From: Thermoplasmata archaeon
GTDB lineage: Archaea; Thermoplasmatota; Thermoplasmata; RBG-16-68-12
DNA length: 64,000 nucleotides
Reading direction: 5' to 3'
Assembly (NCBI GenBank): GCA_036395115.1
Contig: DASWDU010000034.1
Location: 14,941-78,940, forward strand
Shown: in pieces, positions 2,583 through 51,331 of the stretch
Numbering within the stretch: position 1 is the stretch's first letter
Layout of the letters: every line of letters begins with the position of its first letter
The notes under the pieces: generated by a model
Seen by the model: only the letters and a program-made list of their open reading frames with translations
What the model was told of the DNA's origin: nothing
The model's database searches: none
Program-made: the position numbers and the translations under genes

Positions 2583-3710
2583 GTCGGACGATTCAGTGTG
2601 GCGTCGTTTACGTACTTCCCGATCGAGGGATGCTCCGTGGCCTGCGGAAGTCCGTCTCCGGCGACTTCATCCAGATGAACGGGCGCGGGCTCTCGGCGTT
2701 CGCGGCCCGGTACTCCCGGATCGCCGCTTTGAGCTCGCGGACGTTCCCGGGGTTCCGCCGGCGTGTTCGCCCGTCCATGAGGTCGGTGAGGCACCGTTTC
2801 GTCGCATTGTGCCACGAGGACCCCGCCGGGACGACGTGGATGCGGAATCGCGGGTGGTGGGCGAGCCACCGCTTCAACCGTTCCTCCGTCCGCACGGTGA
2901 CGTCGTCGAGGACGATGTGGATGTCACCCTCCGGTGGGACCGCCTCGTCGATGGCACGCAGGAACGCGAGGAACTCCTGACCCCGGTCGCGATGGTGGAA
3001 CTCCCGGATCGCGGTCCCGTCCACCAGGTCGAGTGCGTCGAGGAGGTCCACGGAGACCTCGTGCCGATGTGCCCGGCTCCGCACCTTCGGGGAGCTGCGC
3101 CTGATCGGGATGGCCGGCGTGGGCTCTAGGACCTCGGTCCGCGTCTCCCCGTGCACAGCGAATACGACGGCACGCTTAGGCGGGTCCAGGTACGACCCGA
3201 CGACGTCGACGTGCCGTTCCAGGAACCGAGCGTCGCTCCTGGGCGTTGGCGACCTCGCTTCAGGTGTGAGCCGATGCGCCCGCCATAATCGAGAAACGGT
3301 CATGTGGCTCACGCCGACGGCCTCCGCGAGCGTCCGCGTGGACCAGCGGTCGGTCCCGCGGCGTCGCCCTTGCAGCGTCTTCTCGAGGATGCGCCGTACG
3401 GTCCGGGCCGGGATCTCGGGCGTCCGCCCCGAGCGCGGGGCTTCCCGTTCGATGCCGACGAGGCGGAGGCGGTGGAATCGGGAGCGCCACTTTCCGACGA
3501 ACGGATCGCTCACCTCGAGGCGTCCCGCGATCGCTCGGTTGTCCAACCCCTTCGCCGCCAGGAGGACGACCTGGGACCGGAGGACGAGGCGGTGGGGCGC
3601 GGTCCGGCTCAGCGACCAACCGAGCAGGCGCCGCCGCTCCGCTCGAGAGAGTACGATGGTCGGAGCGACCCTCACGGCCCCGCATCGAAGTCCGCGATAT
3701 TAGTTTACCG
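2530..3710 (-). mobile_element. IS630-family insertion sequence (approximate ends)
   Basis: Single transposase gene with IS630-type HTH plus DDE_3 architecture. 'TAGTTTA' heptamers at 2530-2536 and 3701-3707 may mark the flanks. Clear TIRs were not resolved. Confidence 0.55.
2608..3675 (-). CDS. IS630-family DDE transposase
   Basis: N-terminal HTH 'LSRAERRRLL...', DDE core '...IVLDDVTVRTEE...HVVPAGSSWHN...' and the C-terminal '...RPFIWMKS' ending typical of IS630/Tc1-mariner transposases. Confidence 0.8.
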   Translation of the reverse strand: MRVAPTIVLSRAERRRLLGWSLSRTAPHRLVLRSQVVLLAAKGLDNRAIAGRLEVSDPFVGKWRSRFHRLRLVGIEREAPRSGRTPEIPARTVRRILEKTLQGRRRGTDRWSTRTLAEAVGVSHMTVSRLWRAHRLTPEARSPTPRSDARFLERHVDVVGSYLDPPKRAVVFAVHGETRTEVLEPTPAIPIRRSSPKVRSRAHRHEVSVDLLDALDLVDGTAIREFHHRDRGQEFLAFLRAIDEAVPPEGDIHIVLDDVTVRTEERLKRWLAHHPRFRIHVVPAGSSWHNATKRCLTDLMDGRTRRRNPGNVRELKAAIREYRAANAESPRPFIWMKSPETDFRRPRSIPRSGST

Positions 3711-5079: not shown

Positions 5080-5126
5080 GCGATAGGCTTATCTGGTCCG
5101 TCGCTTGAGGGGGCCCTCCGGTCTCC

Positions 5127-6719
5127 GTGATCAACGAAGTCGTTTCCCTGACCCTCTTGATTGCGCTCCTCATCAGCGTCGCTCTCGATGCGGTCCACCG
5201 GACGAGCATCGCGATTGGAATCGCGTTTGCCGGCGTAGTGATCGGCTCGATCCTCCCGGAGACACGGGACGTGCCGGGGAAAGGGCTCCCCTATTTCGGC
5301 CCCGGGACTGCGCTCGGGGCGGTCAACTTCCAAACCCTCGTCTTCCTGGTGTTCATGGGCGTGTTCATGGCGATTATGCAACGAAGCGGCGCCTTCGACT
5401 GGGTGACGAAGACGCTGGTTCTGAAGAGTCGGATGCAGCCCGGCATCCTTTTCGTCCGGATCCTCCTCTTGTCGTACGCGATTTCGCTCTTCGTGAATAA
5501 CGTCACCGTCGTCTTCATCATGGTTCCCATCACGCTGAACATCTGTCGGCAGTTCGGCGTGAATCCCGTGCCGTTCAGCGTGGCACAGGTCGCCGCCATC
5601 AACCTCGGCGGTGCCTCGACGATGGTGGGCGATTTTCCGAACATCATCATCGCGACGTCGCAGAAGCCGATCGAACTGACCTTCTTGGATTTCCAGACGA
5701 ACATGTTCCCCGCCTGCTTCGCTCTCCTTGTGGCGGAGATCCTCCTGTTCAGCCGCATGCACCCCGAATACTTCACGCGCTTCGAGCCGGGGCCTGCGGC
5801 CCGCGCCTTTGCGGCGGACCTCGCCGAGCGTCGAAGCACGGCAATCACGGACAAGCGCCTCCTCCAGGTGTCCGTGTTGGTCCTGGCCGCCATGTTGGGC
5901 GCATTCGTCGTTTCGACGACGCTTCGGATTCCCATTGCGCTGATTCCGGTTGCCGGAGCCGGCAGCATCCTCATGATATACGAGGTGCGACTGCGATCGA
6001 GGCACCCGCTAGACGCTACGTTAGACAAGCTGCAACGCAGGAACATCATCGGCGACGAGATTTCCAAGGTCCTGAGCGAGGTGCACTGGGACGTCGTGCT
6101 ATTCCTCGCGGCCCTGTTCGTCGTGGTCGGATCGCTGGAGCATACCGACGTCCTCACGTGGGCGGCCAATTTCATTCTCGGGACCTCGCAAGGGAACCCT
6201 GTGCTCGCAGTCATACTCATCGTGGTCCTTGCATCCATCATCACCATGGGCGCGGAGGCGGGACCCGCGACGGCGGTCCTTATCCCGGTGATTAACCAAC
6301 TCACGGTGGCTGGGCTCGGGTCGGGGGGTTTGCTCTACTGGGCACAGTCGCTGGGTGTGCAGGCTGGGTCGAGTACCACGATGATCGGGGCCAACGAGGG
6401 TCCTCTGGCTGCACGGATGATCGAGCAGGACGCGCGGATACACAACGCTTCGGACAGACTGACTGCGAAGGGCTTCACCCGGATTGGCGCGCGCATGTGG
6501 CTCCTTTTCATTCCGCTTTCCATCGTTTACCTGACGGGCTTGATCTTCTTTGGTTGGATGGTCTCAGGGGCTGCGTTCGTCCTCGCCCTTGTCGGGTCCC
6601 TTTGGATTGCGGCCCGCGGACTTGGGGGGGGGGGCGGCCCAGGACCGGCGCCGAGCGTGGCGTCATCCCAAAGGGGACCGACGGCGCCGCCAGCGTCGCC
6701 ATCCCGACGGACCCGCTGA
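5127..6719 (+). CDS. ArsB/NhaD-superfamily anion permease, paralog 1; C-terminal ~30 aa probably artefactual or frameshifted
   Basis: GTG start 'MINEVVSL'. Polytopic membrane protein '...VNFQTLVFLVFMGVFMAIMQRSGAFDWVTKTLVLKS...'. After the G11 tract at 6624-6634 the frame yields 'GGGGGPGPAPS...RRTR', absent from paralog 2. Confidence 0.7.
   Translation: MINEVVSLTLLIALLISVALDAVHRTSIAIGIAFAGVVIGSILPETRDVPGKGLPYFGPGTALGAVNFQTLVFLVFMGVFMAIMQRSGAFDWVTKTLVLKSRMQPGILFVRILLLSYAISLFVNNVTVVFIMVPITLNICRQFGVNPVPFSVAQVAAINLGGASTMVGDFPNIIIATSQKPIELTFLDFQTNMFPACFALLVAEILLFSRMHPEYFTRFEPGPAARAFAADLAERRSTAITDKRLLQVSVLVLAAMLGAFVVSTTLRIPIALIPVAGAGSILMIYEVRLRSRHPLDATLDKLQRRNIIGDEISKVLSEVHWDVVLFLAALFVVVGSLEHTDVLTWAANFILGTSQGNPVLAVILIVVLASIITMGAEAGPATAVLIPVINQLTVAGLGSGGLLYWAQSLGVQAGSSTTMIGANEGPLAARMIEQDARIHNASDRLTAKGFTRIGARMWLLFIPLSIVYLTGLIFFGWMVSGAAFVLALVGSLWIAARGLGGGGGPGPAPSVASSQRGPTAPPASPSRRTR
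6624..6634 (+). repeat. G11 homopolymer inside the 3' end of permease paralog 1
   Basis: 'cttggggggggggcggccc' read directly from the sequence. Confidence 0.9.
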
Positions 6720-6956
6720 ACCGCAACGTACGGCGGTACGCGCGCTGAAGCCGGATGCGGGCGGAGAGGTGGCCTTCCCGGACCGGGTCGAGACTCGTGT
6801 CCTTGCCAGCCCCTGCCAGCCCGAGAACCTCACGATTGAGAAGCCAAACGCACCGTCGAGTCCCGCGGGGTCCAGCGGCTTCCTGGGCGACGCGATGAAT
6901 GTCGGGTCCGCCGATCCGGTGACCATCGGCGCCCGGCTGACTACCGAGTTGATGAC

Positions 6957-8447
6957 GTGATCAACGAAATCGTTTCCCTAGTCCTTCTGTTCTCGTTGCT
7001 CATCGCGGTCGCACTCGACGTGGCCCACCGGACGACGATCGCGATGGGGGTTGCGATTGCCGCAGTCGTGGTCGGCTCAATACTCCCATACGAAGGCACC
7101 GACCCAGCGAGGTTTGGCCAAGGGTACTTCCCGCCATGGGTCGCACTCCAAGCGGTCAACTTTGAGACCCTCATCTTCCTGGTCGGCATGGGGGTGTTCG
7201 TGGCGATCATGCAACAGAGCGGCGCTTTCGACTACGTGACGAAGACGCTCGTCCTCAAGAGCAAGATGCAGCCGGGCATCCTATTCGTCCGAATCCTACT
7301 CTTGTCGTACGGCATTTCGTGCTTCGTGAACAACGTCTCCGTCATCTTCATCATGGTCCCGATAACGCTCAACATCTGTCGGCAGTTCGGCCTCGACCCC
7401 GTGCCGTTCAGCGTGATACAGGTCGCCGTCATCAACCTCGGCGGGGCCTCGACGATGGTGGGCGATTTTCCAAACATCATCATCGCTACGTCGGGGACGA
7501 ACCTGTCCTTCGTGGACTTCCAGGTGAACATGTTTCCCGCCTGCTTTGCGCTTGTGATCGCGTCGATTCTCCTGTTCCGTCGCATGCACCGCGAATACTT
7601 CACGCGCTTCGAGCCGGGGCCTGCCGCCCGCGCCTTTGCGGCGGACCTCGCCGAGCGTCGCGACACCTCAATCACAGACCGGCGCCTCCTTCAGGCGTCC
7701 GTGGTGGTCCTAGTGGGCATGTTGGGCACATTAGTCTTCTCGACGCAGCTTGGGATCCCTCTCGCCCTGATTCCGGCCGTCGGGGCCGCCATCATCCTCA
7801 TCCTATACGAAATGCGCCTGCGCGTCAGGCAGCCCTCGGGCGCCGCGTTAGACAAGATCCAACGTAGGAACCTCATCGGCGACGAGGTCTCCAAGATCCT
7901 GAGTGAGGTGCACTGGGACGTCGTCCTGTTCCTCATGGCCCTGTTCGTCGTGGTCGGCTCACTGCAGGCGACCGCTGTCCTCGACTGGGCGGCCGATTTC
8001 ATTCTCGGTGCCTCGTCAGGCGACCCCTTGCGAGCTTCGATGCTCATCGTTGTCATCGGATCCATCGTTTCCCTCAGCGCTGCGGCAGGACCCGCGACGG
8101 CGGTCTTCGTCCCTGTGATCAAGAAGCTTTCTGGGGTCGGGTCCGGGGGGTTGCTTTACTGGGCTCTGTCGTTGGGGGTACAGGCTGGGTCGAGCACCAC
8201 CTTGATCGGGGCGAACGAAGGTCCCCTGGCCGCTCGGATGATCGAGCAGGACTCGCGGGCACACAACGCTTCGAGTCGATTGGATGCCAAAGGTTTCAGT
8301 CGGATTGGGGGGCGCTTGTGGCTCATGATGATTCCGCTCTCCATCCTTTACCTGGCGGGCATCATTACGCTCGGCTGGATCGTCTCGGTGGCGGCTCTCG
8401 TCATTGCCCTCGTCGGGTCCTTCTTGATTGCCGTCCGGGGAATCTAG
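6957..8447 (+). CDS. ArsB/NhaD-superfamily anion permease, paralog 2 (tandem duplicate)
   Basis: GTG start 'MINEIVSLV', near-identical N-terminus and overall collinearity with paralog 1; ends '...VGSFLIAVRGI'. Confidence 0.75.
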   Translation: MINEIVSLVLLFSLLIAVALDVAHRTTIAMGVAIAAVVVGSILPYEGTDPARFGQGYFPPWVALQAVNFETLIFLVGMGVFVAIMQQSGAFDYVTKTLVLKSKMQPGILFVRILLLSYGISCFVNNVSVIFIMVPITLNICRQFGLDPVPFSVIQVAVINLGGASTMVGDFPNIIIATSGTNLSFVDFQVNMFPACFALVIASILLFRRMHREYFTRFEPGPAARAFAADLAERRDTSITDRRLLQASVVVLVGMLGTLVFSTQLGIPLALIPAVGAAIILILYEMRLRVRQPSGAALDKIQRRNLIGDEVSKILSEVHWDVVLFLMALFVVVGSLQATAVLDWAADFILGASSGDPLRASMLIVVIGSIVSLSAAAGPATAVFVPVIKKLSGVGSGGLLYWALSLGVQAGSSTTLIGANEGPLAARMIEQDSRAHNASSRLDAKGFSRIGGRLWLMMIPLSILYLAGIITLGWIVSVAALVIALVGSFLIAVRGI

Positions 8448-15654: not shown

Positions 15655-15960
15655 ATGTATCAAGAGTGACCGCGCCTGCACCTCCAGGTGCCGTCCGGAG
15701 GCCAGAGGCGGCGTTTTGTAGGATTCTTCAAAACGGTCACTCGACCCGAACGTCGAGATGGCCGTACGCCACACTCTTAGCCTTGTAGACGTTTTCAAAG
15801 CCGCGCGGAGCGTGGAGACGGTTTTGCAAGGTCCTTCAAAACAGATTCGTGGCCCGACTGGGGCGATCGCCTGATTTCGAAATATCCTACAAAAAGGGCA
15901 GGCCGCGTTTCGCATTTTTGAAGGACTCTACAAAAGGGACTCAAGTCACTCTCGTATCAA
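15655..15960. repeat. Intergenic block with five copies of an imperfect palindrome TTTTG-N10/11-CAAAA (core tAGGAtyCTa), bounded by an inverted repeat (caagAGAGTGAC ... GTCACTCTcg)
   Basis: Copies at ~15713-15734, 15782-15800, 15821-15842, 15883-15900 and 15914-15938. Flanking inverted repeat at 15660-15670 and 15945-15954. Confidence 0.6.
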
Positions 15961-17088
15961 TTCGCGAGCAATGACCATCCGCTGGATCTCACTCGTGCCT
16001 TCTCCGATTTCTGTGAGTTTCGCGTCACGCAACATCCGTTCTACGGGATAGTCGGCGATGTAACCGTATCCGCCGTGGATCTGCACCGCCCGGTTCGTCA
16101 CGAACGACGACATCTCGCTCGCGTAGAGCTTGGCCATCGCGGCCTCCTTCTTGAATGACTTTCCCTGGTCTTTCAGCCAAGCCGCGCGCCGTACCAACGC
16201 CCGCGCCGCATCGATCCTCGTCGCCATGTCGGCGAGCATGAACTGAATCGCCTGATGCTCCGCAATCGGTTTGTCGAACTGAATCCGTTCCCTCGCATAC
16301 TTCACGGACTCCTCGAACGCGCCTTGCGAAATCCCGACCGCCATCGAGCCGATTCCGATCCGGCCGCCATCGAGGATCTTCAGCGCGTTCGCGAAGCCTC
16401 CCGCCTCGGGTCCCAGGAGCGCGTCCTTGGGGACCTTGCACTCCGTGAGGATGACCTGCGACGTGGCGCTGCCGCGCACCCCGAGCTTCTCTTCGACCTT
16501 CCCGATCGAGAGGCCGCGGTTGCCTCGCTCGACGATGAAGGCGCTGATCCCTCGGTTCCCCTTGGTCGTATCCGTAACGGCGTGGATGACGAACGTCCCC
16601 GCGACCGGGGCGTTCGTGCAGAAAGTCTTCGTGCCGTTCAAGACCCAACCGTCCTTCGTCCGGATGGCCGTGGACCGCATCGCGGCAGCGTCCGATCCGC
16701 TTGTTGGTTCCGTGAGGGCCCACGCCCCGACCTTGCGGCCGCTGGCGAGGTCCGGGATGTACCTTCGCTTCTGCTCCTCCGTCCCCGCGAGCCAGATCGT
16801 CCCGGTGCACAGCGAGTTGTGGGCCGCCATGATGAGCGCGTGCGATCCGCACACGCGCGCGACCTCCTCGATTCCGATCGCAAGCGCGACGGCATCGAGG
16901 CCCGCACCTTCGTACTCCTGGGGGATCGCCACGCCAAGGAGCCCGAGGCCGGCCATCTTCGCGACGGTATCCTTCGGGAACTCGCCGGTCTTGTCGACGC
17001 GTGCCGCAATCGGACGGATTTCATTCTCGGCGAAATCGTGGACCGTTTGGCGGATCATCTCGTGTTCGGGCTTCAGCTCGAAGTCCAT
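15946..17088 (-). CDS. Acyl-CoA dehydrogenase
   Basis: 380 aa ACAD fold: '...[15 protein letters not shown]...', '...IHGGYGY...' and a C-terminal catalytic Glu region '[10 protein letters not shown]'. Confidence 0.9.
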
Positions 17089-17149: not shown

Positions 17150-17218
17150 CGTCTTTGGTAGGATCCTACAAAAGGGCTCGTTGGGCCGACGCGATTTTGT
17201 AAGGTTCTTCAGAATCCA
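17150..17218. repeat. Two further copies of the TTTTG-N10-CAAAA palindrome (ttggtaggatcctacaaaag; ttttgtaaggttcttcagaa)
   Basis: Near-perfect 18-nt palindrome at 17155-17172 and a second copy at 17194-17213, between acd and the exonuclease gene. Confidence 0.6.
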
Positions 17219-17790
17219 CCTTCAGCGCCCGAGGCTTGCGGCGGCCTCCGCCGCTTGTCCCCAAGGTCTCCCAAGACCCCGCGACTCTCGTCCAACACGT
17301 CCATCAAGGCGTCGCGCTCTCGCGTCACGTACTCGATGATCTCCGGATACCGTCCGTCCCGGTACATCTTCGGGACGCGGGCGCCGCTCTCCTTGTCCGC
17401 GTACCGATGGAGGCTCGATCCCTCGAACGAGCCGCGGTTGAGCAGGACGAGCACGGAGGAGAGGTCGAAGTACGGCTTCGTGAACCAGTAGTACTTGAGC
17501 TTCCCGATGTCCCAGTCGACCAGCTTCCATTTGGTCGCCCGCTCGATCAGGAACGTCAGGTCGAACCGAAGGCGGTTCCCCACCGGCACGAAGTCCCACG
17601 TCGGCTCGAGGACGCCCTTTTCGAGGACCGTCTGGATCGCCTGCCTCTCCCCCCACTCCCACTCCGCGACGACCTGGAAGGTCCCCTTCGGCGTGAGTTC
17701 GTCGGTGAGCGGCTGGTACTGCACCGTGATGATGCGGTCCTGCTGCGGGCCGTCCCCCGTCGTTTCCGTATCGAAGTAGTATAGCGGCAC
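17209..17790 (-). CDS. DEDD-family 3'-5' exonuclease (DnaQ-like)
   Basis: GTG start 'VPLYYFDTETTG...' (Exo I motif), '...GNRLRFDLTFL...' (Exo II) and '...LHRYADKE...' (Exo III-like). The remainder of the 565-aa ORF upstream is Arg-rich high-GC noise. Confidence 0.55.
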   Translation of the reverse strand: MPLYYFDTETTGDGPQQDRIITVQYQPLTDELTPKGTFQVVAEWEWGERQAIQTVLEKGVLEPTWDFVPVGNRLRFDLTFLIERATKWKLVDWDIGKLKYYWFTKPYFDLSSVLVLLNRGSFEGSSLHRYADKESGARVPKMYRDGRYPEIIEYVTRERDALMDVLDESRGVLGDLGDKRRRPPQASGAEGGF

Positions 17791-17895
17791 GCGGAGCCTT
17801 CGGATTGCACGAAGGCCTCTGACGGGCCTTAAGTCCTTCCACCGCTCGCGCCGTGCGACAGTCTTTTCTCCGCATCCTGCGTTGCCGCGCCGGAC

Positions 17896-19047
17896 ATGCG
17901 AGTCGGGATCATCGGCGTCGGCATGACCGCCTTCCGGCCGTCGACGCCGGACGTCAGCTGGAAGGAGCTCATGTTCGAGGCCGCGTCCCGCGCGTACGCC
18001 GACGCGGGCGTGGACCCGCGGGCCGACGTCGGCTCGTTCGTCACGTGCGCCGAAGACTACTACGAGGGATTCGGGATCTTCGACGAGTTCGTGCCGGACC
18101 AGCTCGGAGCCGTGCTCCGGCCGACGTGCACCGTGTCGGGCGACGGATTGCAGGGCCTCGCGAACGCCTTCATGCAGATCCACACGGGCCTGATCGACGT
18201 CGCCGTCGTCGAGGCGCACAGCAAGATCTCGGACGTCCTGACGCCGCTCGGCATCGTCGAACACGGCCTCGACCCGATCTGGAACAAGCCGCTCGGATTC
18301 CATCCGTACGTCGTCGCGGGGCTCGAGGCGGACGCCTACCTGCGTGCGACCCGCACCCCGACGAAGGCGCTCGCCGCGGTCGTCTCGAAGAACCGGCGGA
18401 ACGCGTTGCACAATCCGATCGCGGCGTACGGCGCGGCGGTGGACCCGGATCACGTGACGTCGTCGGAACCGCGGTTCGAGCCGCTGCGGTCGCTCGACAT
18501 CAGCGGGCCCGCGGACGGCGCCGTCGTCCTCGTCCTCGCGTCGGACCGCGCGGCGCGCCGCCTCCACGCGACTCCCGTCTGGATCCGCGGCGTCGGCTGG
18601 GCGAGCGACTCGCCCAGCCTCGAGACGAGGGACTGGGCCTCCGCGACGTACGCGCGCCTGGCGGCCGCGATGGCGTACCGGCTCGCGAAGGTCCGTCGGC
18701 CGGCGACGGAGGTCGATTTCGCCGAGGTGGACGACCGCTTCTCGTACAAGGAATTGCAGCACCTCGAGGCGCTCGGCCTCGCAAAGCCCGGCGAGGCGGG
18801 CCGGGAGGCGCTCCGCGGCGCATACGCGGCGGACGGCCGGCGGCCGGTCAACGTGTCCGGCGGCTCGCTCGGCTGCGGCAACGTCTTCGAGGCGACGGGC
18901 CTGCATCGCGCGGCGGAGGCGACGCTCCAGCTCCGGGGCGACGCCGGCTCCCGCCAGATCGACGGGGCGAAGATCGGTGTCGCGCAGTCGTGGCGGTTCA
19001 TTCCGAGCGCGACCGGTGCGGTCGCGGTCCTGGGGGCGGGAGCCTGA
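17896..19047 (+). CDS. Thiolase-like protein (SCP-x/archaeal acetyl-CoA C-acetyltransferase type) 1
   Basis: 'MRVGIIGVGMTAF...' N-terminus; thiolase-fold length and motifs '...NVSGGSLGCGNVFEATG...'. Confidence 0.8.
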   Translation: MRVGIIGVGMTAFRPSTPDVSWKELMFEAASRAYADAGVDPRADVGSFVTCAEDYYEGFGIFDEFVPDQLGAVLRPTCTVSGDGLQGLANAFMQIHTGLIDVAVVEAHSKISDVLTPLGIVEHGLDPIWNKPLGFHPYVVAGLEADAYLRATRTPTKALAAVVSKNRRNALHNPIAAYGAAVDPDHVTSSEPRFEPLRSLDISGPADGAVVLVLASDRAARRLHATPVWIRGVGWASDSPSLETRDWASATYARLAAAMAYRLAKVRRPATEVDFAEVDDRFSYKELQHLEALGLAKPGEAGREALRGAYAADGRRPVNVSGGSLGCGNVFEATGLHRAAEATLQLRGDAGSRQIDGAKIGVAQSWRFIPSATGAVAVLGAGA

Positions 19048-19058
19048 GGAAAGTCGGC

Positions 19059-20207
19059 GTGATCGGCGCGGGCATGACGATCTTCCGACGGCGTCTCCAG
19101 GAGACCGGGAAGGAGATGTGCTTCGAGGCCACGCGGATGGCGCTGGATTCCGCCGGCCTCTCGATTGGCGACGTCGAGATGGTGGTGAACGGCACCGCTC
19201 CGGACGCCTTCGACGGCGTCCACATGAAGGGCGAGTACCTCCTCGACGGCTGCGGCGGGTACCGCAGGCCGTACACCCGCGTCTTCACGGGCGGCGGGAC
19301 CGGCGTCTTCAGCACGATCGCGGGCTGGTGGCACGTGGCCTCCGGCCTCGCGGACGTCGTTCTGGTCGTGAACGAGGAGAAGATGTCGTCCTGCCAGCCG
19401 CATCCGCAGTCGGTCTTCGCGCACATCTGGGATCCGATCCTGGACCGCCCGCTGAAGCCCAACCTGGTATGGATCTTCGCGATGGAGATGAACCGCTACA
19501 TGACGGTCTACGGGATCAAGAAGGAGGACATCGCCCGCGTGGCGGTCAAGAACAAGCGGAACGCGGTCGGCCATCCGTGCGCCCAGCTCGCGGACCCGAA
19601 CATCACGGTCGACGACGTCCTGAAGAGCGAGGTCATGGCGTGGCCCGTCCAGCGGCTCGACATCAGCCCTCCCAGCGACGGCGCGTCCGCCGTGGTGCTC
19701 GCGTCGGACGACTTCATCCGCCGACGGCGGATCAAGGACCGCGCGTGGATCTCCGGCGTCGGGTGGTGCATCGACTCGACGATGTGGACGGATCGGGACC
19801 TCGTCTTCCCGGAGTACGTCGCGCGCGCCGCGAAGATGGCATATCAGATGGCGAAGATCCGCGACCCCCGTCGGGAGATCGACTTCGCGGAGCCCTACGA
19901 CCCGTTCGACTACAAGGAGCTGCACCACCTCGAAGGATTGATGCTCGCGAAGAAGGGCGAGGCGCCGAAGCTCACGCGAGAGGGCGTGACGGAGCGCGAC
20001 GGTGCGATGCCCGTGTGCCCATCCGGCGGCCTCATGGGCGTCGGGAATCCGATCGCGGCGACGATGGGCATGAAGGTCGGCGAGCTGTTCTGGCAGCTCA
20101 CGGGCCAGGCGGGCAAGCGGCAAATCCCGCACGAGGTCCGCACCGGGGTGTCGCAGGCCTGGGGCGACCTGATGCAGTACGGCTGCGTGGTGGTGATGCG
20201 GGCATGA
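19059..20207 (+). CDS. Thiolase-like protein (SCP-x type) 2
   Basis: '(V)IGAGMTIFRRRL...'; '...PVCPSGGLMGVGNPIAATMGMKVGELFWQL...'. Start ambiguous: GTG at 19059 or ATG at 19074. Confidence 0.75.
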   Translation: MIGAGMTIFRRRLQETGKEMCFEATRMALDSAGLSIGDVEMVVNGTAPDAFDGVHMKGEYLLDGCGGYRRPYTRVFTGGGTGVFSTIAGWWHVASGLADVVLVVNEEKMSSCQPHPQSVFAHIWDPILDRPLKPNLVWIFAMEMNRYMTVYGIKKEDIARVAVKNKRNAVGHPCAQLADPNITVDDVLKSEVMAWPVQRLDISPPSDGASAVVLASDDFIRRRRIKDRAWISGVGWCIDSTMWTDRDLVFPEYVARAAKMAYQMAKIRDPRREIDFAEPYDPFDYKELHHLEGLMLAKKGEAPKLTREGVTERDGAMPVCPSGGLMGVGNPIAATMGMKVGELFWQLTGQAGKRQIPHEVRTGVSQAWGDLMQYGCVVVMRA

Positions 20208-20725
20208 CCGCGCGCGTCGCGAAGTGGCCCGGGGTCGAGCTGAGCGCCGCCGACCTCCTCGAGGGCAAGGTCACGCAGACGCGCTTCCGGCCCGAGGCCA
20301 AGTACGCATGGTCCGCGGGTGAGGCGATCTCCCGGTTCCTCGAAGAGCTGCAAGCCGGACGGCTGATTGCGCGGACCTGCCATCGCTGCGAACGAGTCCT
20401 GTTCCCGCCGCGGATGTTCTGCGAGGAATGCTTCCGGCCGACGGATGCGTGGACGTATATCCGCGATACGGGCACGATCGAGACGTACTCGGTGTCGTAC
20501 CTCGATACGGACGCGAAGCGAATCTCGGAACCCATCCTCGTCGGCGTCGTGAGCCTCGACGGCGCCTCCCCGAAGATGGGGATGATGCACTACTTCGGCG
20601 AGATGACGAAGGACGAGATCCGAATCGGGATGCGGGTGAAGGCGGCCTGGCGGCCGGCCGCGGAGCGGAAGGGGAGCGTCCTCGACATCCGCTACTTCCG
20701 GCCGCTGCGGGAGGGGGAGGGATGA
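20204..20725 (+). CDS. DUF35 protein (zinc ribbon plus OB-fold; thiolase-associated scaffold/ChsH2-C-like)
   Basis: ATGA overlap with the upstream gene. 'CHRCERVLFPPRMFCEECF' zinc ribbon followed by an OB-fold-like region. Confidence 0.75.
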   Translation: MTARVAKWPGVELSAADLLEGKVTQTRFRPEAKYAWSAGEAISRFLEELQAGRLIARTCHRCERVLFPPRMFCEECFRPTDAWTYIRDTGTIETYSVSYLDTDAKRISEPILVGVVSLDGASPKMGMMHYFGEMTKDEIRIGMRVKAAWRPAAERKGSVLDIRYFRPLREGEG

Positions 20726-21204
20726 CGTTCCTCGAGCGAACGACGGACGCCCGGCGGTACCGGGCGTGGGAGGGGAACATGGAGGCCGACTACATCTACA
20801 CGTCCGGCGTCGCGGGGGAGCGGTTCTTCGTCGCGCTTCGGGACGAAGGCCGTCTCCTTGCCACTCGGTGCACCGCGTGCGGCCTCGACTACCTCCCGCC
20901 GCGAATCTTCTGCGAAGTGTGCTTCGCCGAGCTCACGGAGTCCGTCCCCGTCCCGCCCGAGGGCCGGATCGCGTCCGTCACCGTCGCCCACCAGGACCGC
21001 ACGGGGGCCCTCGCATCGCCCCCGCAGGTCTGGGTGTTCGTCACGTTCAAAGGGGTCCGAGGCGGCCTCCTCCACCGCTTCCTGGGGGCTCCGGACGCCC
21101 CCCGGCCGGGGACACGCGTCCGCGTCCGGCTCCGACCGCGGGAGGCGCGGACCGGGACGATCGCGGACATCGAGGGGTTCGAGCCCGCCCGTTACGCAAA
21201 ATGA
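20722..21204 (+). CDS. DUF35 protein, second copy
   Basis: ATGA overlap with the upstream gene. '[19 protein letters not shown]' zinc ribbon. Confidence 0.75.
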
Positions 21205-21242: not shown

Positions 21243-21821
21243 TTGACGGCCGTGATGCTGCGCAAACCCACGATGGACCCGGAGTCGAAGACCTACAAGT
21301 TCAAGATCTGCCTTGTGGGGGAAGAGGGCGTCGGCAAGACGAGCCTCATCCATCGTTTCGTGTCCGGTGCGTTCGACGAGTCGTACATCCGCACACTCGG
21401 GGCCGTCGTCTCGAAGAAGACCGTCGCCCTGGGATCGATGCACGGTCGGCCGGTCCAGGTCGACATGATGATCCTCGACATTATGGGCAAGCGGACGTTC
21501 TTGCAGCTGTTCAAGGAAGCGTACTTCCACGGCGCGAAGGGCGTCCTCGCGGTGTTCGACATGACCCGCGCCGCCTCGTTGCGCGACCTGACGAAGTGGA
21601 TCGACGGCGTGCGGGACTCCGTCGGCCCGATCCCGGTGTACGCGCTCGGCAACAAGACCGACCTGACGCAACGCCGCGAGGCGACGCCGGAGGAAGCCTC
21701 GTCGATCCTGCGGTCGTACGAGTGCCCGATCCTGTACACGTCCGCGAAGACGGGCGACAACGTCGAGCAGGCGTTCCAAGGCCTCGCGAAGACGATCGTC
21801 GAGTCGAGCGTCACCGAGTAA
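21243..21821 (+). CDS. Ras/Rab-like small GTPase with non-canonical switch II
   Basis: G1 'GEEGVGKTS', switch I 'YIRTLG', G3 'DIMGKR' (DxxG with the catalytic Gln position replaced), G4 'NKTD', G5 'TSAK'. The true start may be the internal Met 'MDPESK' near 21273. Confidence 0.75.
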
Positions 21822-21871: not shown

Positions 21872-23551
<1,680 letters not shown>

Positions 23552-23558
23552 GGACCCC

Positions 23559-23957
23559 ATGCCGAAGAAGATCCGCGTGCTCATCGCGAAGCCTGGCCTG
23601 GACGGCCACGACCGCGGGGCGAAGGTCGTCGCGCGGGCGTTGCGCGACGCGGGGATGGAGGTCATCTATACGGGGCTGCGGCAGACGCCGGAGGACATCG
23701 TCGAGGCCGCGATCCAGGAGGACGTCGACGCGATCGGGCTGTCGTCCCTGAGCGGCGCGCACATGACGCTCTTCCCGGCCGTTGTCCGGCTGCTCAAGAA
23801 GCGGAAGGCGGGCGACATCATCGTGGTGGCCGGAGGGATCATCCCGGAGGAAGACGTTCCGAAGCTCAAGAAGGCGGGCATCCGGATGGTGTTCGGTCCG
23901 GGGACGACGCTCGGCGACATCGTCGCGTTCTTCGAGAAGGCGGGCAAAGATGCGTGA
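23559..23957 (+). CDS. mcmA2: Methylmalonyl-CoA mutase, B12-binding subunit
   Basis: '[35 protein letters not shown]' contains the DxHxxG cobalamin-binding motif. Confidence 0.9.
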
Positions 23958-24975
23958 GCGGGTGTCCCGCAAGAAGCCGTCCGTCCGACGATCGCGGGAT
24001 TCCGTCCGCGGGCTCGTCGAGGCCCTCCTCCGCGGAGATAAGCGGGCGGCGGGAAAGGTCATCTCGCTCATCGAGGACGACGAACCGGAGGCCGTCGAGG
24101 CCGTCGCCCGGATATTCCCGCACACGGGCCGCGCCCACGTCGTCGGGTTCACGGGACCGCCCGGAGCGGGAAAGAGTTCCCTCATCAACCGCCTGGTCCG
24201 CACGTTCCGCGGGAAGGACAAGAAGGTCGGCGTCGTCGCGGTCGATCCGACGTCCCCATATTCGGGCGGCGCGGTGCTAGGCGACCGCATCCGCATGGCG
24301 GACACGGGCGTCGATCCGGGGGTCTTCATCCGCTCCATGGCGACGCGCGGGCACGCGGGCGGACTGGCCCTCGCCACGTTCGACGCGGTGCGGGTCCTCG
24401 ACGCGCTCGGCATGGACGTCGTGTTCGTCGAGACGGTCGGCGCGGGGCAGAGCGAGGTAGAGATCGCGACGCGCGCGCACACGACAGTCGTCGTCGAGAT
24501 GCCCCTGACCGGGGACGTGGTCCAGACGATGAAAGCAGGCATCCTGGAGATCGGCGACGTCTACGTCGTGAACAAGGTGGATCTGGGCAACGACGACGTC
24601 CTCGTGGCGAACCTGACGTTTCAGCTGCAAGCCCGAGACGGCTGGACCCCGCCGATCGTTCGGACGATCGCGACGGACGGCCGCGGAGTCGACGAGCTCG
24701 CCGACGCCCTAGTGCGCCATGCGGAGTTCCTCGACCGAACGGGCCTCCGACGAAAGCGGGAAGTGGCGCGGGCCCGGCTCGAAATCCTGGAGAACGCACA
24801 GCGATCGCTCGCGCGTCGGGTCGAGGACACGTCCCGGTTGGGCGTAGCGTTCGATAGGCTCGCGCAGGAGGTCGCCGATCGCCGGATGGACCCGCACACC
24901 GCGGCCCTGAATCTCCTGGAGCGCCGAAACAAGAGGGCCCGCAAGAGTTCCGGAGACGCTCGGGGTGGGATTTGA
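23950..24975 (+). CDS. meaB: MeaB/ArgK-type G3E GTPase (methylmalonyl-CoA mutase chaperone)
   Basis: Walker A 'GPPGAGKSS'; '...[12 protein letters not shown]...NKVDL...'. Overlaps mcmA2 by 8 nt. Its 3' end overlaps the antisense tRNA. Confidence 0.85.
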
Positions 24976-25030: not shown

Positions 25031-25127
25031 CGCTGCGACGAGGCCTTGGCCCGCCATTAAAATTTCGGCCTCGATGAACCGATGCGGCCCAGCGTGCGAC
25101 GCAGACCGCGTTTTTTGGCTCAGAGGA

Positions 25128-49844: not shown

Positions 49845-50137
49845 GGATGGACACCAACGGCTAAAGCCTTTCTCAACCCGACGTTCTGTGGTGGATGGTT
49901 TCTGGCGAAGGGTTCCGTTTCGACGTTGTTGACGCGCCTTCCGGTAGGTTTATCCCTTATGCCCGGTTATGCCCAGATAGTCCAGCGGCTGTAACCCTCC
50001 ACGACGTGGCTGGGGGTCGCGGACGAGAAGGCAAAGCGTGTTTACGAGTAGCGGCGCCCTCACCGAGGCGGCCTCACTGTCCTCCGGCTTTGGACCCTCC
50101 ACAGCAGTGGTTGGGGGCGGGAGGACGATGTGAGACC

Positions 50138-51331
50138 ATGGAAAGCCAAACAAGGCGAAAGGCGGTGGCCCCCGCCGAAGAGAAAGGGGTCGAAGGCGTG
50201 AACACTCGGCAGGCAGTCCGGGAGATCCGGAAGCTTGCCCTAGAGTACGAGCAGCACGGGAACCGGTTCTACGTCACGGTGTGGACGGGCACCGAGTTGG
50301 CGAAGAGCACGACGGTGCCGGTCTTCGACAGCAGGAAAGAAGACGGGTACCAGCGGCTCCCCAAGAAGCAGCGCGTACACAGGGCGGCCAAGTACCTCCT
50401 TTCGGGAGGGAAGTTCCCGGGGGCCATCCTCCTGAGCATCAGGGGTCCGGACCGTGAGAAGATCTCCGTGCGCCCGATCCAGGATGTCCCGGGGAACGGG
50501 TTCTACCGGCTCGTCGAACTAACCATTCCGGCGGGGGTCATGATCTACCTCGTCGATGGACAGCACCGGAAGTACGCCCTCGTCGAGGGGATCGACCAGG
50601 GGAGCCACCTCGAGAACTTCGGGCTCGCCTCGGTCATTTTTCTTTCCGAGGACGAGGTCGACGAGGCCCAACAGTTCCGGACCGTCCACAAGGAGCAAAA
50701 GAACGTCCCCACGGACCTCGTGGACCGGATCCTGCTCCGCGAAGTGGAGACGGATCGGGTGAACCCGATCGCCCTCCGGCAAGCCGGCGAGTACAAGAAG
50801 CTCCGGGAGTGGACCGCGATCCGCGTCACGCGCCTCCTGGACGAGCTGCAGGGGAGCCCGTGGCATGGCCGGATCAAGCCTCCGAACGCGGGGATGTTGG
50901 CCGAGGAGGCCAAGGCCAAGGGCGACGAGGCCCCGGACTGGGACGTGACGGAGAACAGCGTCAAGACGTCGCTTACACCCGTCATCGAGTTGCTCGACGG
51001 ATGGGAGCCAGAAGCAATCGCGAACATGCTCGTCGCGTACTGGCAAGCGGTCGTCGAGGTGTGCGCACAGGCCTGGGCGAACAAGGAGGCCTATCTGTAC
51101 ATGCACAACACGAAGGGGATCTACGTCCTCCACTCGTTCTTCCCGGCGTGCTTCGCGCACTCCGTGAAGCTATCGGGTGGGCCGTCGAAGGACAACTTCG
51201 CCTCCGTGCTCTCGGATGCGGGCTTGGACGACGAGTTCTTCGCCCGTGGAGGGGAGCTCGAGGGGGTCGGAGGTTGGGGCGGGTTCAAGACGAAGGCGCA
51301 GGAACTCGTGTCGAACCTAGCCGAGACGTAG
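50138..51331 (+). CDS. DGQHR-domain protein (DndB-like; ParB/Srx-fold)
   Basis: 'VMIYLVDGQHRKYALVEG' DGQHR motif. ~397 aa, the size of DndB. 'gggaggac' SD-like element 11 nt upstream of the ATG. Confidence 0.75.
   Translation: MESQTRRKAVAPAEEKGVEGVNTRQAVREIRKLALEYEQHGNRFYVTVWTGTELAKSTTVPVFDSRKEDGYQRLPKKQRVHRAAKYLLSGGKFPGAILLSIRGPDREKISVRPIQDVPGNGFYRLVELTIPAGVMIYLVDGQHRKYALVEGIDQGSHLENFGLASVIFLSEDEVDEAQQFRTVHKEQKNVPTDLVDRILLREVETDRVNPIALRQAGEYKKLREWTAIRVTRLLDELQGSPWHGRIKPPNAGMLAEEAKAKGDEAPDWDVTENSVKTSLTPVIELLDGWEPEAIANMLVAYWQAVVEVCAQAWANKEAYLYMHNTKGIYVLHSFFPACFAHSVKLSGGPSKDNFASVLSDAGLDDEFFARGGELEGVGGWGGFKTKAQELVSNLAET

Follow-up and report, generated by a model that had tools for sequence, protein, structure and literature searches.

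Four co-directional genes encoding two thiolase-fold proteins (T1 and T2) and two DUF35 proteins (D1 and D2) are found at positions 17896-21204 of the 64,000-nucleotide stretch of Thermoplasmata DNA analysed here (the window), exactly where the initial annotation had placed them. Judging from their sequences, these four proteins most likely form an uncharacterised four-subunit carbon–carbon lyase, aldolase-like and acting on short acyl-CoAs. The reading that best explains the observations, to which about an even chance is assigned, is a DUF35-stapled T1·T2 heterodimer in which T2 would be catalytic and would act on a small acyl-CoA through Cys-independent enolate chemistry.

Organisation and conservation of the four-gene unit

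T1 (17896-19047, plus strand, 383 aa; Pfam Thiolase_C_1) and T2 (19044 or 19059 to 20207, plus strand; Pfam Thiolase_N and Thiolase_C_1) are SCP2-thiolase-fold genes, followed on the same strand by the DUF35 genes D1 (20204-20725, 173 aa) and D2 (20722-21204, 160 aa), each with the Pfam domains zf-ChsH2 and OB_ChsH2_C. It had been proposed that all four are coupled by ATGA or 8-12-nt overlaps; the 4-nt ATGA overlap is indeed present at T2/D1 and D1/D2, but the 8-12-nt overlap at T1/T2 is not obtainable from any ATG, GTG or TTG codon. At this junction the window has GCCTGAGG (CTGA), where the closest relatives have GTGA or ATGA, and thus T2 starts either at the non-canonical CTG 19044 (4-nt overlap with T1, 387 aa product) or at GTG 19059, which lies after an 11-nt gap with GAGGA 9 nt upstream (382 aa product). 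The T2 homologs begin with MRKVGVIGAGM, and it is there that GTGA or ATGA overlaps occur in the relatives. Archaeal relatives most often join these genes by a 4-nt overlap (29 T1/T2, 41 T2/D1 and 41 D1/D2), and gaps of 2-40 nt separate the four genes in bacterial ones.

In 80 GTDB species genomes (Thermoplasmata, Chloroflexota, Fraserbacteria and WOR-3), each locus long enough to be informative has the genes in the order T1-T2-D1-D2, a recurrence that places the arrangement far beyond chance. Sulfolobales and Sulfolobales-like loci also keep this order, as acd-T1-T2-D1-D2. Additionally, T1, T2 and D1 each form one monophyletic orthologous group spanning archaea and bacteria; for D2, monophyly was not recovered, and archaeal D2 proteins reach 45% identity with the structural-genomics protein 3IRB. 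T1 and T2 are the closest paralogs of each other, with paralog identities of 31-44% versus at least 45% (T1) and at least 56% (T2) among orthologs. On a bacterial contig, T2, D1 and D2 are naturally fused into a single 731-aa protein (P0364), with a T1 gene ahead of it. This fusion and the strict 2+2 linkage favour one complex, and the suggestion of a doubled 1:1 arrangement gives way, in view of the T1, T2 and D1 monophyly and the fusion, to one ancient heteromeric module rather than two thiolase/DUF35 pairs.

In bacterial loci, the unit is found without any constant partner gene, and most of them have housekeeping neighbours such as fabD/fabG, nusB, tatC, tRNA synthetases and EF-G; fabD/fabG lie near the unit in several Chloroflexota.

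As for the DUF35 proteins, D1 carries the motif CxxC-x10-CxxC (TCHRC...FCEEC), its best PDB match being 3IRB (SSO2064; 1e-11) and the next DUF35 chain 6ESQ_E, and it is presumed to be a stand-alone staple subunit with a Zn-ribbon and an OB fold. D2 has the motif RCTAC...FCEVC, with all four Cys at least 95% conserved, and also matches 3IRB best (9e-15); neither protein matched an NCBIfam model. Since the 3IRB-type gene occupies the fourth position, that of D2, in the Sulfolobales-like acd-T1-T2-D1-D2 loci, D2 is the ortholog of SSO2064. Every DUF35 protein solved within a complex binds a thiolase-fold dimer (PMC6996347, PMC12329534).

Active sites of the two thiolase-fold proteins

The status of the thiolase residues was established by alignments to 7YVY, 6ESQ and 6HSJ together with residue censuses of 68 T1 and 79 T2 orthologs, and both the Cys/His/Cys set of thiolases and the Glu/Cys/His set of HMG-CoA synthase (HMGCS) are missing from T1 and T2. 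The claim that neither protein is HMGCS-like was borne out, as HMG_CoA_synt was unmatched in Pfam and NCBIfam and both proteins match SCP2-type thiolases best, in sequence as in fold. Consequently, a mevalonate-pathway thiolase/HMGCS/DUF35 complex is barely credible: an archaeal host needs that pathway and the locus does join thiolase-fold and DUF35 genes, but no HMGCS is present, the archaeal acetoacetyl-CoA thiolase equivalog (AcCoTHIOL_METTL) is scored at 150 and 165 bits against 600, the closest paralog of T1 is T2 and vice versa, and the loss of both residue sets refutes this reading, which had already been disfavoured in the initial annotation.

In T1, a conserved nucleophilic Cys was not found among the 68 orthologs: the C78 position is occupied by C, H, V, F or Q, and S81, which is at the nucleophile position if the following helix is ungapped, varies among S, T, C, P and G. 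The HDCF motif has become D279-D280-(R/K/T/A)-(F/Y), and at the GHP His position archaea carry N, 15 of 18 bacteria have H and Sulfolobales have V. Nevertheless, 80 of the 383 residues are at least 97% invariant, among them an acidic stretch, AEDYxEGFxIFDEFVPDQLG, with the look of an interaction surface, and the AF2 model (pLDDT 80) superimposes on the archaeal thiolase 6ESQ_A with a TM-score of 0.89. These features suggest that T1 is a catalytically degenerate partner.

T2 is far more conserved, with 146 of 382 residues at least 97% invariant in 79 archaeal and bacterial orthologs and identities of 56-99% across domains (56-76% between archaea and bacteria; 63% between the window T2 and its Sulfolobales ortholog). 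Its CxS nucleophile motif is replaced by G78-G79-G80-T81, which puts Gly at the nucleophile position, the HDCF position reads Y280-D-P-F and the GHP position G329-N330-P331 in all 79 orthologs, and the C-terminal loop is A-W368-G-D. Most of the beta4-alpha4 roof loop does not vary (P114, H115, Q117, F120, I123, D125, R130-L132 and N135), which, together with the cross-domain identity, may indicate a small, specific substrate. For T2, AF2 gave a model of only moderate quality (pLDDT 71), its active-site loops scoring below 50.

The missing Cys/His/Cys set also disposes of the beta-oxidation thiolase that had been offered as one option. Two ordinary 3-ketoacyl-CoA thiolase/DUF35 pairs beside acd, or an archaeal fatty-acid-synthase-type ketothiolase/DUF35 core, would account for the fold, the DUF35 genes and the acyl-CoA dehydrogenase gene that lies nearby here and directly upstream in Sulfolobales; such pairs are common in archaea and active in S. 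acidocaldarius, and public annotations read acetyl-CoA acetyltransferase. This explanation is nonetheless highly improbable, because the conserved nucleophilic Cys, the HDCF His/Cys and a conserved GHP His are lacking in the 68 T1 and 79 T2 orthologs, the acetoacetyl-CoA thiolase scores and those for BbsB (63 and 102 against 750) are far under the cut-offs, the 2+2 linkage and the T2-D1-D2 fusion indicate one complex, and the window has neither a hydratase nor a 3-hydroxyacyl-CoA dehydrogenase.

The other option raised earlier, an Ltp2/ChsH2-type retro-aldolase, provides the best analogy for T2, through the Gly at the nucleophile position and the Tyr of YDxF, but family membership did not hold. 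The motif equivalent to HDCF is Y294DHF in Ltp2 and Y302DCY in Sal (PMC12329534), Y280DPF being that of T2, an equivalence drawn transitively through HDCF. T2 is without the second catalytic residue of the two aldolases, having Pro282 at the position of Sal Cys304 and Ltp2 His296 and Asn330 at that of Ltp2 Tyr344; D1 and D2 are separate proteins and not domains fused to a MaoC hydratase, and lipid-transfer-protein HMM scores are far under the cut-off.

It is thus proposed that T1, T2, D1 and D2 would be four subunits of one heteromeric complex, in which a pseudo-symmetric T1·T2 thiolase-fold heterodimer would have a different DUF35 Zn-ribbon/OB staple on either side. Both T subunits have lost the Cys that accepts the acyl group, along with the His/Cys set for acid-base catalysis. 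T2 is probably the catalytic, Sal/Ltp2-like subunit, with Tyr280 in the (H/Y)DxF motif as putative general base and the Asn330 amide replacing the GHP His, while T1 would complete the dimer and the docking sites of D1 and D2. As T2 keeps the Sal/Ltp2 solution, Cys-independent C–C bond chemistry via an acyl-CoA enolate appears the most likely activity, and the most probable reaction would split a small beta-hydroxyacyl-CoA in a retro-aldol step, yielding acetyl- or propionyl-CoA together with an aldehyde or ketone, or would run the opposite way. This reaction type is read from only two or three aligned residues. One relative (P0373; 44% identity) has YDPF and GNP but also a Cys in the nucleophile position, so that aldolase chemistry cannot be diagnosed from the Tyr/Asn pair by itself.

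A non-catalytic assembly, either an acyl-CoA-binding or sensing module or a scaffold for the mutase, Ras-like GTPase or reductases, would fit the disappearance of every canonical catalytic residue from both T proteins as well as the acidic T1 segment. DUF35 is an established scaffold, Trf working outside acyl-CoA metabolism (PMC6996347), and Saci_1121/1120 recruits further enzymes (bioRxiv 10.1101/2024.07.05.601840). This possibility is considered improbable, since the four catalytic-loop positions and many polar residues of T2 are extremely conserved across domains, which is more enzyme-like than scaffold-like, and bacteria keep the unit without a constant partner.

Genomic surroundings and candidate reactions

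The unit had been described as lying next to acd. A short-chain-type acyl-CoA dehydrogenase gene is indeed close (15946-17088; all three Acyl-CoA_dh domains; nearest NCBIfam model AcrC/butyryl-CoA-DH-like, under cut-off), but on the minus strand, divergent from the unit and separated from it by an exonuclease-like ORF (17209-17799, also on the minus strand). An acd gene is upstream of the unit in 27 archaeal loci; in Sulfolobales it is a different acd, co-directional and directly upstream, and in three Chloroflexota loci it is located 2-3 kb downstream.

The strongest conserved neighbour in Thermoplasmata is not acd but a B12 acyl-CoA mutase operon. Downstream of D2, after 50 nt, a gene for a 188-aa Ras-family small GTPase (21255-21821, plus strand; Pfam Ras 4.5e-34, Roc) is probably in the same operon as the unit, and a GTPase gene separates D2 from the mutase in 42 Thermoplasmata loci, with no such case among the bacterial loci. 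Next on the plus strand are the large subunit of the mutase (21872-23551; Pfam MM_CoA_mutase 1e-219), its B12-binding small subunit (23559-23957; Pfam B12-binding 8.7e-30), conserved downstream in Thermoplasmata loci, and a MeaB-type G-protein chaperone (23950-24975; Pfam MeaB 8.5e-87), followed by a T-rich terminator-like site at 25094-25120. The best PDB match of the large subunit is HcmA (4R3U, 559 bits, versus 479 for human MCM), and its score of 605 against the MCM equivalog is under the cut-off of 876. Phe at MCM Tyr89, Gln at MCM Arg207 and Ala at HcmA Asp117 form a signature that appears isobutyryl-CoA-mutase (ICM)-like; Phe/Gln occurs in 36 of 36 neighbouring orthologs and Ala in the 34 where the motif was matched. 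Three Fraserbacteria loci also have a MeaB gene, located some 3 kb downstream of the unit. An ICM-like mutase with MeaB occurs near the unit in two different arrangements, and 2-oxoacid:ferredoxin oxidoreductases are near it in Sulfolobales and one Chloroflexia locus. Taken together, acd, the oxidoreductases and the mutase with MeaB suggest a context of amino-acid-derived short- or branched-chain acyl-CoA catabolism. No adjacent hydratase was found in Thermoplasmata loci or most bacterial loci. Distant relatives have clusters of ACD, enoyl-CoA hydratase and T-T-DUF35 without a 3-hydroxyacyl-CoA dehydrogenase, which would fit a hydratase-to-aldolase logic.

These surroundings also bear on another Cys-independent enolate reaction, namely malonyl- or methylmalonyl-CoA decarboxylation, like that of the KS-CLF/KSQ-type Cys-less condensing-enzyme homologs, or a biosynthetic aldol- or Claisen-type condensation of two acyl-CoA-derived partners. 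Tyr280 and Asn330 sit at the positions of the decarboxylation-promoting His/Asn pair of KAS III-type enzymes, which we take to be structurally equivalent. The linkage of the unit to a B12 mutase with MeaB recalls E. coli sbm-ygfD-ygfG, and the bacterial housekeeping context, with fabD/fabG in several Chloroflexota, would fit biosynthesis. However, the mutase has the ICM-like Phe/Gln and not the Tyr/Arg signature of MCM, and methylmalonyl-CoA is therefore probably not a local metabolite; furthermore, no carboxylase is nearby. TbSLP, an SCP2-thiolase-like protein with YDCF, does decarboxylate malonyl-CoA weakly, but extremely slowly (kcat 0.005 s-1), and CtSal does not (PMC12329534). Such a reaction is accordingly regarded as unlikely.

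Relation to known systems

The lyase reading, with T2 as candidate aldolase, has its nearest parallels in the steroid side-chain retro-aldolases Sal-Shy(DUF35) (9MYR) and Ltp2-ChsH2(DUF35) (6OK1), which combine an SCP2-thiolase fold with DUF35 staples and against whose aldolase type both T1 and T2 reach a Foldseek probability of 1.0. In CtSal, as in T2, Gly takes the place of the nucleophilic Cys, and Asn330 of T2 lies 50 residues past Tyr280, as do Sal Gln352 and Ltp2 Tyr344 past their own Tyr (PMC12329534). In contrast, the steroid enzymes are homodimers whose DUF35 domains are fused to a MaoC hydratase, whereas a heterodimer with two different free-standing DUF35 proteins is predicted here; the roof loop, invariant here, is disordered in them (PMC12329534), no steroid-type cluster is present, and identity is only 22-24%.

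The archaeal thiolase/HMGCS/DUF35 complex (6ESQ) shares the archaeal origin and the joining of two different thiolase-superfamily subunits by DUF35, but the present unit has no HMGCS subunit, no catalytic Cys/His/Cys and two DUF35 paralogs instead of one. In the benzoylsuccinyl-CoA thiolase BbsAB (7PXP) and the alpha2beta2 ketothiolase/DUF35 complex Saci_1121/1120 of S. acidocaldarius, a thiolase-fold dimer is likewise flanked by free-standing DUF35 proteins encoded by adjacent genes, but these are true thiolases with a catalytic Cys, a homodimeric core and one T gene per D gene. The putative D-T-T'-D' layout would be the analogue of the alpha-beta-beta-alpha arrangement of BbsAB, Ltp2-ChsH2(DUF35) and Sal-Shy(DUF35).

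Actinobacterial sterol-catabolism pairs (ltp3/ltp4; Rhodococcus pLP1, cluster L083) also have two adjoining thiolase-fold genes plus DUF35, one of the two proteins being Cys-less with Y-x-P-F and x-N-P, like T2. The closest annotated plasmid homolog is on pLP1, with the motifs GGATG, YAPF and ANP, and is accompanied by a truncated thiolase-like partner and a DUF35 protein in a ChsE/ChsH-like cluster. These pairs differ in identity (about 35%), in their single DUF35 gene and in their location within ChsE/ChsH-type catabolic clusters. According to Wilbrink 2012, as cited in PMC10398937, ltp3 and ltp4 are proposed aldol-lyases, a function derived from genetics and not from biochemistry.

SSO2064 (3IRB) also has the extra N-terminal helix region, although it is only 35% identical to the window D2 and was solved alone as a homodimer; in the Sulfolobales loci, this orphan structure takes the place of D2 in the four-gene module. 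Finally, T2 passes the NCBIfam equivalog PRK06065 (662 bits; cut-off 455) and T1 nearly passes PRK06066 (482.6 bits, just under 516), both 'thiolase domain-containing protein'. Therefore, the two families already exist as curated but unnamed models to which no function is attached and which mention neither a partnership of T1 with T2 nor a connection to the two DUF35 proteins.

Gene anatomy and surroundings of the unit

The four genes for thiolase-fold and DUF35 proteins that the initial annotation had placed at 17896-21204 are present on the forward strand, apart from a detail of the junction between the first two. They comprise the SCP2-thiolase-fold genes T1 (17896-19047; 383 aa; Pfam Thiolase_C_1) and T2 (ending at 20207; Thiolase_N and Thiolase_C_1), followed by the DUF35 genes D1 (20204-20725) and D2 (20722-21204), both of which match zf-ChsH2 and OB_ChsH2_C and combine a Cys4 zinc ribbon of the CxxC-x10-CxxC type with an OB-fold domain, encoded beside the thiolase-fold genes. 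Regarding the overlaps previously described, those of the ATGA type were found at the T2/D1 and D1/D2 junctions, whereas none of 8-12 nt is possible between T1 and T2. T2 homologs begin with MRKVGVIGAGM, and in the nearest relatives their start codon lies in a GTGA or ATGA across the T1 stop, a position read as CTGA in the window and in one further locus (L005). The next start candidate is the GTG at 19059, 11 nt past the T1 stop and with GAGGA upstream, so that T2 in the window (19044-19061) starts either at the CTG or at this GTG, 5 codons later. In archaeal relatives, junctions are most often 4-nt overlaps, and gaps of 2-40 nt occur in bacteria.

The acyl-CoA dehydrogenase gene (acd; 15946-17088, reverse strand), which had been described as standing beside the unit, is indeed present, but it is encoded on the strand opposite to the unit and lies beyond an exonuclease-like ORF (17209-17799, reverse strand). 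The latter has a DEDD-exonuclease-like N-terminus (YYFDTETTGDG), gave no match in Pfam or NCBIfam, and is kept beside acd in many Thermoplasmata loci. Downstream of the unit, all on the forward strand, are found the genes for a Ras/Roc-family small GTPase (21255-21821; 188 aa), the large subunit of a B12-dependent acyl-CoA mutase (21872-23551), the B12-binding subunit of this mutase (23559-23957) and MeaB (23950-24975), and a T-rich terminator-like site was found only 3' of MeaB, with none earlier downstream of the unit.

The window has a G+C content of about 66%, the genome loci nearest to its unit are Thermoplasmata MAGs, and the exact D1 protein is also encoded on ENA and JGI soil-metagenome contigs, with a TFIIB gene adjoining; the source is a soil Thermoplasmata archaeon. 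Elsewhere in the window, regions of lower G+C carry two transposase genes (one DDE_3 with HTH, one IS240-type DDE; 2608-3699 and 53136-54293, both on the reverse strand) and a DndB-like, DNA-sulfur-modification-associated gene (49865-51331, forward strand), and a tandem pair of CitMHS-family transporter genes (citrate/di-tricarboxylate type) lies at 5109-6719 and 6840-8447.

Distribution of the four-gene unit

A scan with T2 of one genome per GTDB species returned 80 loci, and tblastn with the complete set of window proteins showed the order T1-T2-D1-D2 wherever a locus was of sufficient length for it to be judged. These loci belong to MAGs labelled Thermoplasmata or Methanomassiliicoccales, to three Candidatus Fraserbacteria, to about 15 Chloroflexota and to one WOR-3 bacterium. 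Additionally, SSO2064 (PDB 3IRB), an orphan structure that is the best PDB match of D1 as well as of D2, retrieved as a query Sulfolobales-like hot-spring metagenome contigs (L090-L093), where the 3IRB-type gene is the fourth in an acd-T1-T2-D1-D2 cluster (for example at L092 1953-6396) and T2 is 63-65% identical to that of the window. Counting both the GTDB loci and the Sulfolobales-like contigs, the unit occurs in two or more archaeal phyla and in no fewer than three bacterial ones. The entry 3IRB thereby gains a genomic context and probably a structural one, and, as Sulfolobales include model species amenable to genetics, the orthologous unit there offers a possible way to test its function. 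The second-best PDB match, ST0096 (PDB 4YZO), was considered as a member of the unit and rejected, as its S. solfataricus ortholog is not part of a T-T-D-D unit. On that S. solfataricus contig (L084 5001-6403), a Cys-less thiolase-like protein of the ST0096 family precedes a single protein of 91 aa that has only the zf-ChsH2 zinc ribbon, a "mini-DUF35" arrangement unlike T1-T2-D1-D2.

Orthologs are at least 45% (T1) and at least 56% (T2) identical, compared with 31-44% between T1 and T2 and 22-44% between D1 and D2. In distance comparisons and neighbour-joining trees, T1, T2 and D1 were each monophyletic over archaea and bacteria. The phylogeny that had been proposed for the DUF35 copies thus separated D1 as a set of orthologs, but D2 monophyly was not recovered in the neighbour-joining tree; identity between the 3IRB reference and archaeal D2 sequences reaches 45%. 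From these identities and trees it follows that the T1/T2 and D1/D2 splits had occurred before the unit spread. Among 1.84 billion cluster representatives searched there was also a bacterial protein of 731 aa (P0364; L085 2585-4780) that joins T2, D1 and D2 in one chain and whose gene is preceded by one for T1; the zinc ribbon of its D2 part looks degenerate. The earlier description of a doubled thiolase/DUF35 pairing consequently gives way to a single kept module, with constant order, a T2-D1-D2 fusion and old paralog splits. The gene content is always two linked thiolase-fold and two linked DUF35 genes, and this linkage, together with the fusion, argues at the sequence level for a putative T1T2D1D2 assembly. 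The true thiolase-DUF35 complexes BbsAB and Saci_1121/1120 are α2β2, with a homodimeric core and each thiolase gene matched by a single DUF35 gene.

Active-site residues of T1 and T2

The AlphaFold2 models of T1 and T2 (pLDDT 80 and 71, respectively) both match SCP2-type thiolase folds best, namely 7YVY from P. furiosus, the archaeal thiolase 6ESQ, zebrafish SCP2-thiolase, BbsB, Ltp2, Sal and PhlC, and all PDB sequence and fold matches of the two proteins are SCP2-type thiolase-like. When 68 orthologs of T1 and 79 of T2 were aligned to 7YVY, 6ESQ and 6HSJ, the catalytic Cys and the acid/base Cys/His of thiolases were absent from both families. T2 carries an invariant GGGT (G78-G79-G80-T81) for the nucleophile motif C(A/S)SG, YDPF for HDCF in 79/79 orthologs, with Y280 aligned to the His of HDCF/HDAF, an invariant GNP in place of GHP, and AWGD as its last loop; 146 of its 382 residues are at least 97% invariant. 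T1 has S, T, C, P or G at the nucleophile position, and C78, its sole nearby Cys, is likewise variable (C/H/V/F/Q); DD(R/K/T/A)(F/Y) replaces HDCF, with Asp where T2 has Tyr280, and the His of GHP is N, H or V according to lineage. The Sulfolobales orthologs of both proteins show the same residue pattern. C320 of T2 (in CPSGG) was considered as an alternative nucleophile and discarded, since the Sulfolobales ortholog and the protein P0361 have Ser instead.

Neither protein is a thiolase or an HMG-CoA synthase. T1 and T2 fall far short of the curated thiolase equivalog models, reaching 150 and 165 bits for AcCoTHIOL_METTL (cut-off 600) and 63 and 102 bits for BbsB (cut-off 750). On the other hand, T2 passes NCBIfam PRK06065 (662.1 bits, cut-off 455), and T1 falls marginally below PRK06066 (482.6 bits, cut-off 516), which is its top match by a factor of 2; both are existing NCBI equivalog models without names. 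The fold, as well as the label "acetyl-CoA acetyltransferase" carried by thousands of public proteins of both families, would speak for ordinary thiolases, a reading that is very improbable in view of the lost residues, and the β-oxidation thiolase first suggested is not upheld. The mevalonate complex shares a DUF35 scaffold with the unit, but it has one such protein where the window has two paralogs, and neither T1 nor T2 matched HMG-CoA synthase (HMG_CoA_synt) in Pfam or NCBIfam; this explanation is thus extremely improbable, and its exclusion in the initial annotation holds after the active-site alignment there recommended. These proteins are tallied as thiolase/DUF35 pairs in genome-inferred β-oxidation, mevalonate and archaeal fatty-acid synthesis pathways, and such reconstructions are probably wrong for T1-T2-D1-D2, because the residues for thiolase chemistry are missing.

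The same positions bring T2 closer to the steroid side-chain retro-aldolases. It was reported that the HDCF of SCP2-thiolase corresponds to Y294DHF in Ltp2 (PDB 6OK1) and to Y302DCY in Sal, with the Tyr acting as catalytic base, that Gly takes the place of the nucleophilic Cys in CtSal (PDB 9MYR), and that Tyr344 of Ltp2 is replaced by an inert Gln352 in Sal (PMC12329534). T2 likewise lacks the nucleophile, having Gly as in CtSal, and its Y280 is equivalent, transitively via the HDCF motif (PMC12329534), to the base Tyr of YD(H/C)(F/Y). The 50-residue spacing from this Tyr to Tyr344/Gln352 is also that from Tyr280 to Asn330 in T2 and from the HDCF His to the GHP His in 7YVY. Since the placements of Gly, Tyr280 and Asn330 agree, T2 has three of the four Sal hallmark positions; the general acid of Sal is lacking, with Pro282 at its position. 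The second catalytic residue (Cys304 in Sal, Tyr344 in Ltp2) is thus absent from T2, which has Pro282 and Asn330, and from T1, which has R/K/T/A and N/H/V. Additionally, the DUF35 domain of the Ltp2 and Sal systems resides in a preceding MaoC-type hydratase (ChsH2 or Shy) of a steroid cluster, whereas D1 and D2 stand alone, and no MaoC or enoyl-CoA hydratase gene was found in the 64-kb window. Therefore, of the Ltp2/ChsH2-type retro-aldolase first proposed, the aldolase-like residues of T2 remain, but not the membership of that family.

More distant relatives of T2 are informative in this respect. Those at 42-44% identity occur in clusters of acyl-CoA dehydrogenase, crotonase and T-T-DUF35 genes that contain no 3-hydroxyacyl-CoA dehydrogenase, an arrangement that, by analogy, follows the dehydrogenase, hydratase and aldolase logic of steroid side-chain cleavage. 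As a caveat to the aldolase likeness, one of them (P0373) combines YDPF and GNP with a nucleophile position that is still Cys. One divergent ortholog adjoins a crotonase and a HIBADH-like gene. A PLSDB plasmid search with T2 gave only paralogs of at most 35% identity, the nearest annotated one being the Cys-less Rhodococcus pLP1 homolog (35%; motifs GGATG, YAPF and ANP), which has a truncated thiolase-like gene upstream, a DUF35 gene, and a cluster of two acyl-CoA dehydrogenases, a split MaoC hydratase, a CoA-transferase, SDRs and a CoA ligase.

Metabolic context and proposed reaction

Downstream of the unit, 42 Thermoplasmata loci carry the genes for the Ras-like GTPase, mutase and MeaB; in two loci (L047 and L051) the mutase operon is divergent and upstream, and in Fraserbacteria MeaB lies about 3 kb downstream. 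The Ras/Roc GTPase between D2 and the mutase is kept in the 42 Thermoplasmata loci and absent in bacterial loci, and it is present alongside the MeaB chaperone, not instead of it. The best solved relative of the mutase is the 2-hydroxyisobutyryl-CoA mutase HcmA (PDB 4R3U). At the substrate-defining positions of the alignments, the mutase of the window has Phe where methylmalonyl-CoA mutase (MCM) has Tyr89 and HcmA Ile90, Gln, as in HcmA, at MCM Arg207, and Ala, as in MCM, at HcmA Asp117. Phe and Gln were found in 36/36 mutase orthologs adjoining the unit, and Ala in 34, where the motif matched. The Phe80/Gln198 pair is what we take to be the isobutyryl-CoA mutase signature. Judged by these residues, the enzyme is probably not a methylmalonyl-CoA mutase, and its signature is isobutyryl-CoA-mutase-like, in an archaeon. 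The idea of a methylmalonyl-CoA decarboxylase, which came from the "MCM" neighbour, is weakened by the presence of Phe/Gln instead of Tyr/Arg.

The acd gene is divergent from the unit in 27 Thermoplasmata loci, co-directional and directly upstream in Sulfolobales, and separated from it by a few kb in three loci of Chloroflexota. Genes for 2-oxoacid:ferredoxin oxidoreductases occur near the unit in Sulfolobales and in one Chloroflexia locus, and in one Sulfolobales-like contig (L093) the unit is followed by an IorA-like enzyme of this type and an acyl-CoA synthetase. Most bacterial loci have housekeeping neighbours, none of them constant, and no consistent catabolic partner emerged when the 99 ORFs around the unit in 19 bacterial loci were tallied by Pfam family (SDR 5, TatC 4, NusB 4, MeaB 3). 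A search for hydratase and dehydrogenase partners had been recommended; neither a hydratase nor a 3-hydroxyacyl-CoA dehydrogenase was found in the 64-kb window, whose genes are mostly housekeeping. Taken together, the contexts point to short, amino-acid-derived acyl-CoA metabolism, with no particular substrate singled out.

The gene anatomy, the conservation, the missing thiolase residues, the Sal-like residues of T2, the fusion and the contexts are all observed in the sequences. As regards the mechanism, we infer its stoichiometry, catalytic subunit, reaction and substrate as follows. T1 and T2 would form a pseudo-symmetric heterodimer, with D1 and D2 each docked to one side, like the DUF35 proteins in every solved complex. 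T2 would bind a small acyl-CoA in its highly conserved pocket and make or break a C-C bond via an enolate, with no covalent acyl-enzyme, T1 being an accessory or non-catalytic partner. The most probable reaction would be retro-aldol cleavage with Tyr280 as base. Another enolate reaction, such as decarboxylation or condensation, is rather unlikely. A non-catalytic scaffold or sensor is improbable, the strong conservation of T2 across domains speaking against it. In its full form, the aldolase reading makes T1T2D1D2, tentatively and with low confidence, an unrecognised, cross-domain and housekeeping-grade heterotetrameric β-hydroxyacyl-CoA lyase with a Cys-less thiolase fold, acting on small substrates in a bypass from acd through a hydratase to the aldolase. 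Such a lyase would convert, for example, 3-hydroxyisovaleryl-CoA, 3-hydroxy-2-methylbutyryl-CoA or 3-hydroxybutyryl-CoA into a ketone or aldehyde and acetyl- or propionyl-CoA.

If true, branched-chain amino-acid carbon in Thermoplasmatota, Sulfolobales, Chloroflexota and others would be routed through acd, hydratase and aldolase, bypassing the 3-hydroxyacyl-CoA dehydrogenase/thiolase steps or those of the biotin-dependent methylcrotonyl-CoA carboxylase and HMG-CoA lyase, and in Thermoplasmata this route would be coupled to an archaeal B12 mutase of the isobutyryl-CoA type. Moreover, should T2 prove to be a lyase of the aldolase type, the chemistry of Ltp2 and Sal would be no specialty of steroid catabolism but an old and widespread solution in archaeal and bacterial central acyl-CoA metabolism. 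A literature search found no paper on the two-thiolase/two-DUF35 unit, on PRK06065/PRK06066 or on Rv3521 as a double DUF35 protein, and the prior record of these families consists only of the unnamed NCBIfam models and of one subunit as the orphan structure 3IRB. DUF35-stapled thiolase-fold complexes are already known as a kind; this one differs in that its two thiolase-fold subunits are distinct from each other, as are its two DUF35 subunits, and in that the thiolase residues are gone and the aldolase set is incomplete. The unit differs further from the known systems in its housekeeping-level conservation across domains and in its association with an isobutyryl-CoA-mutase-like mutase.
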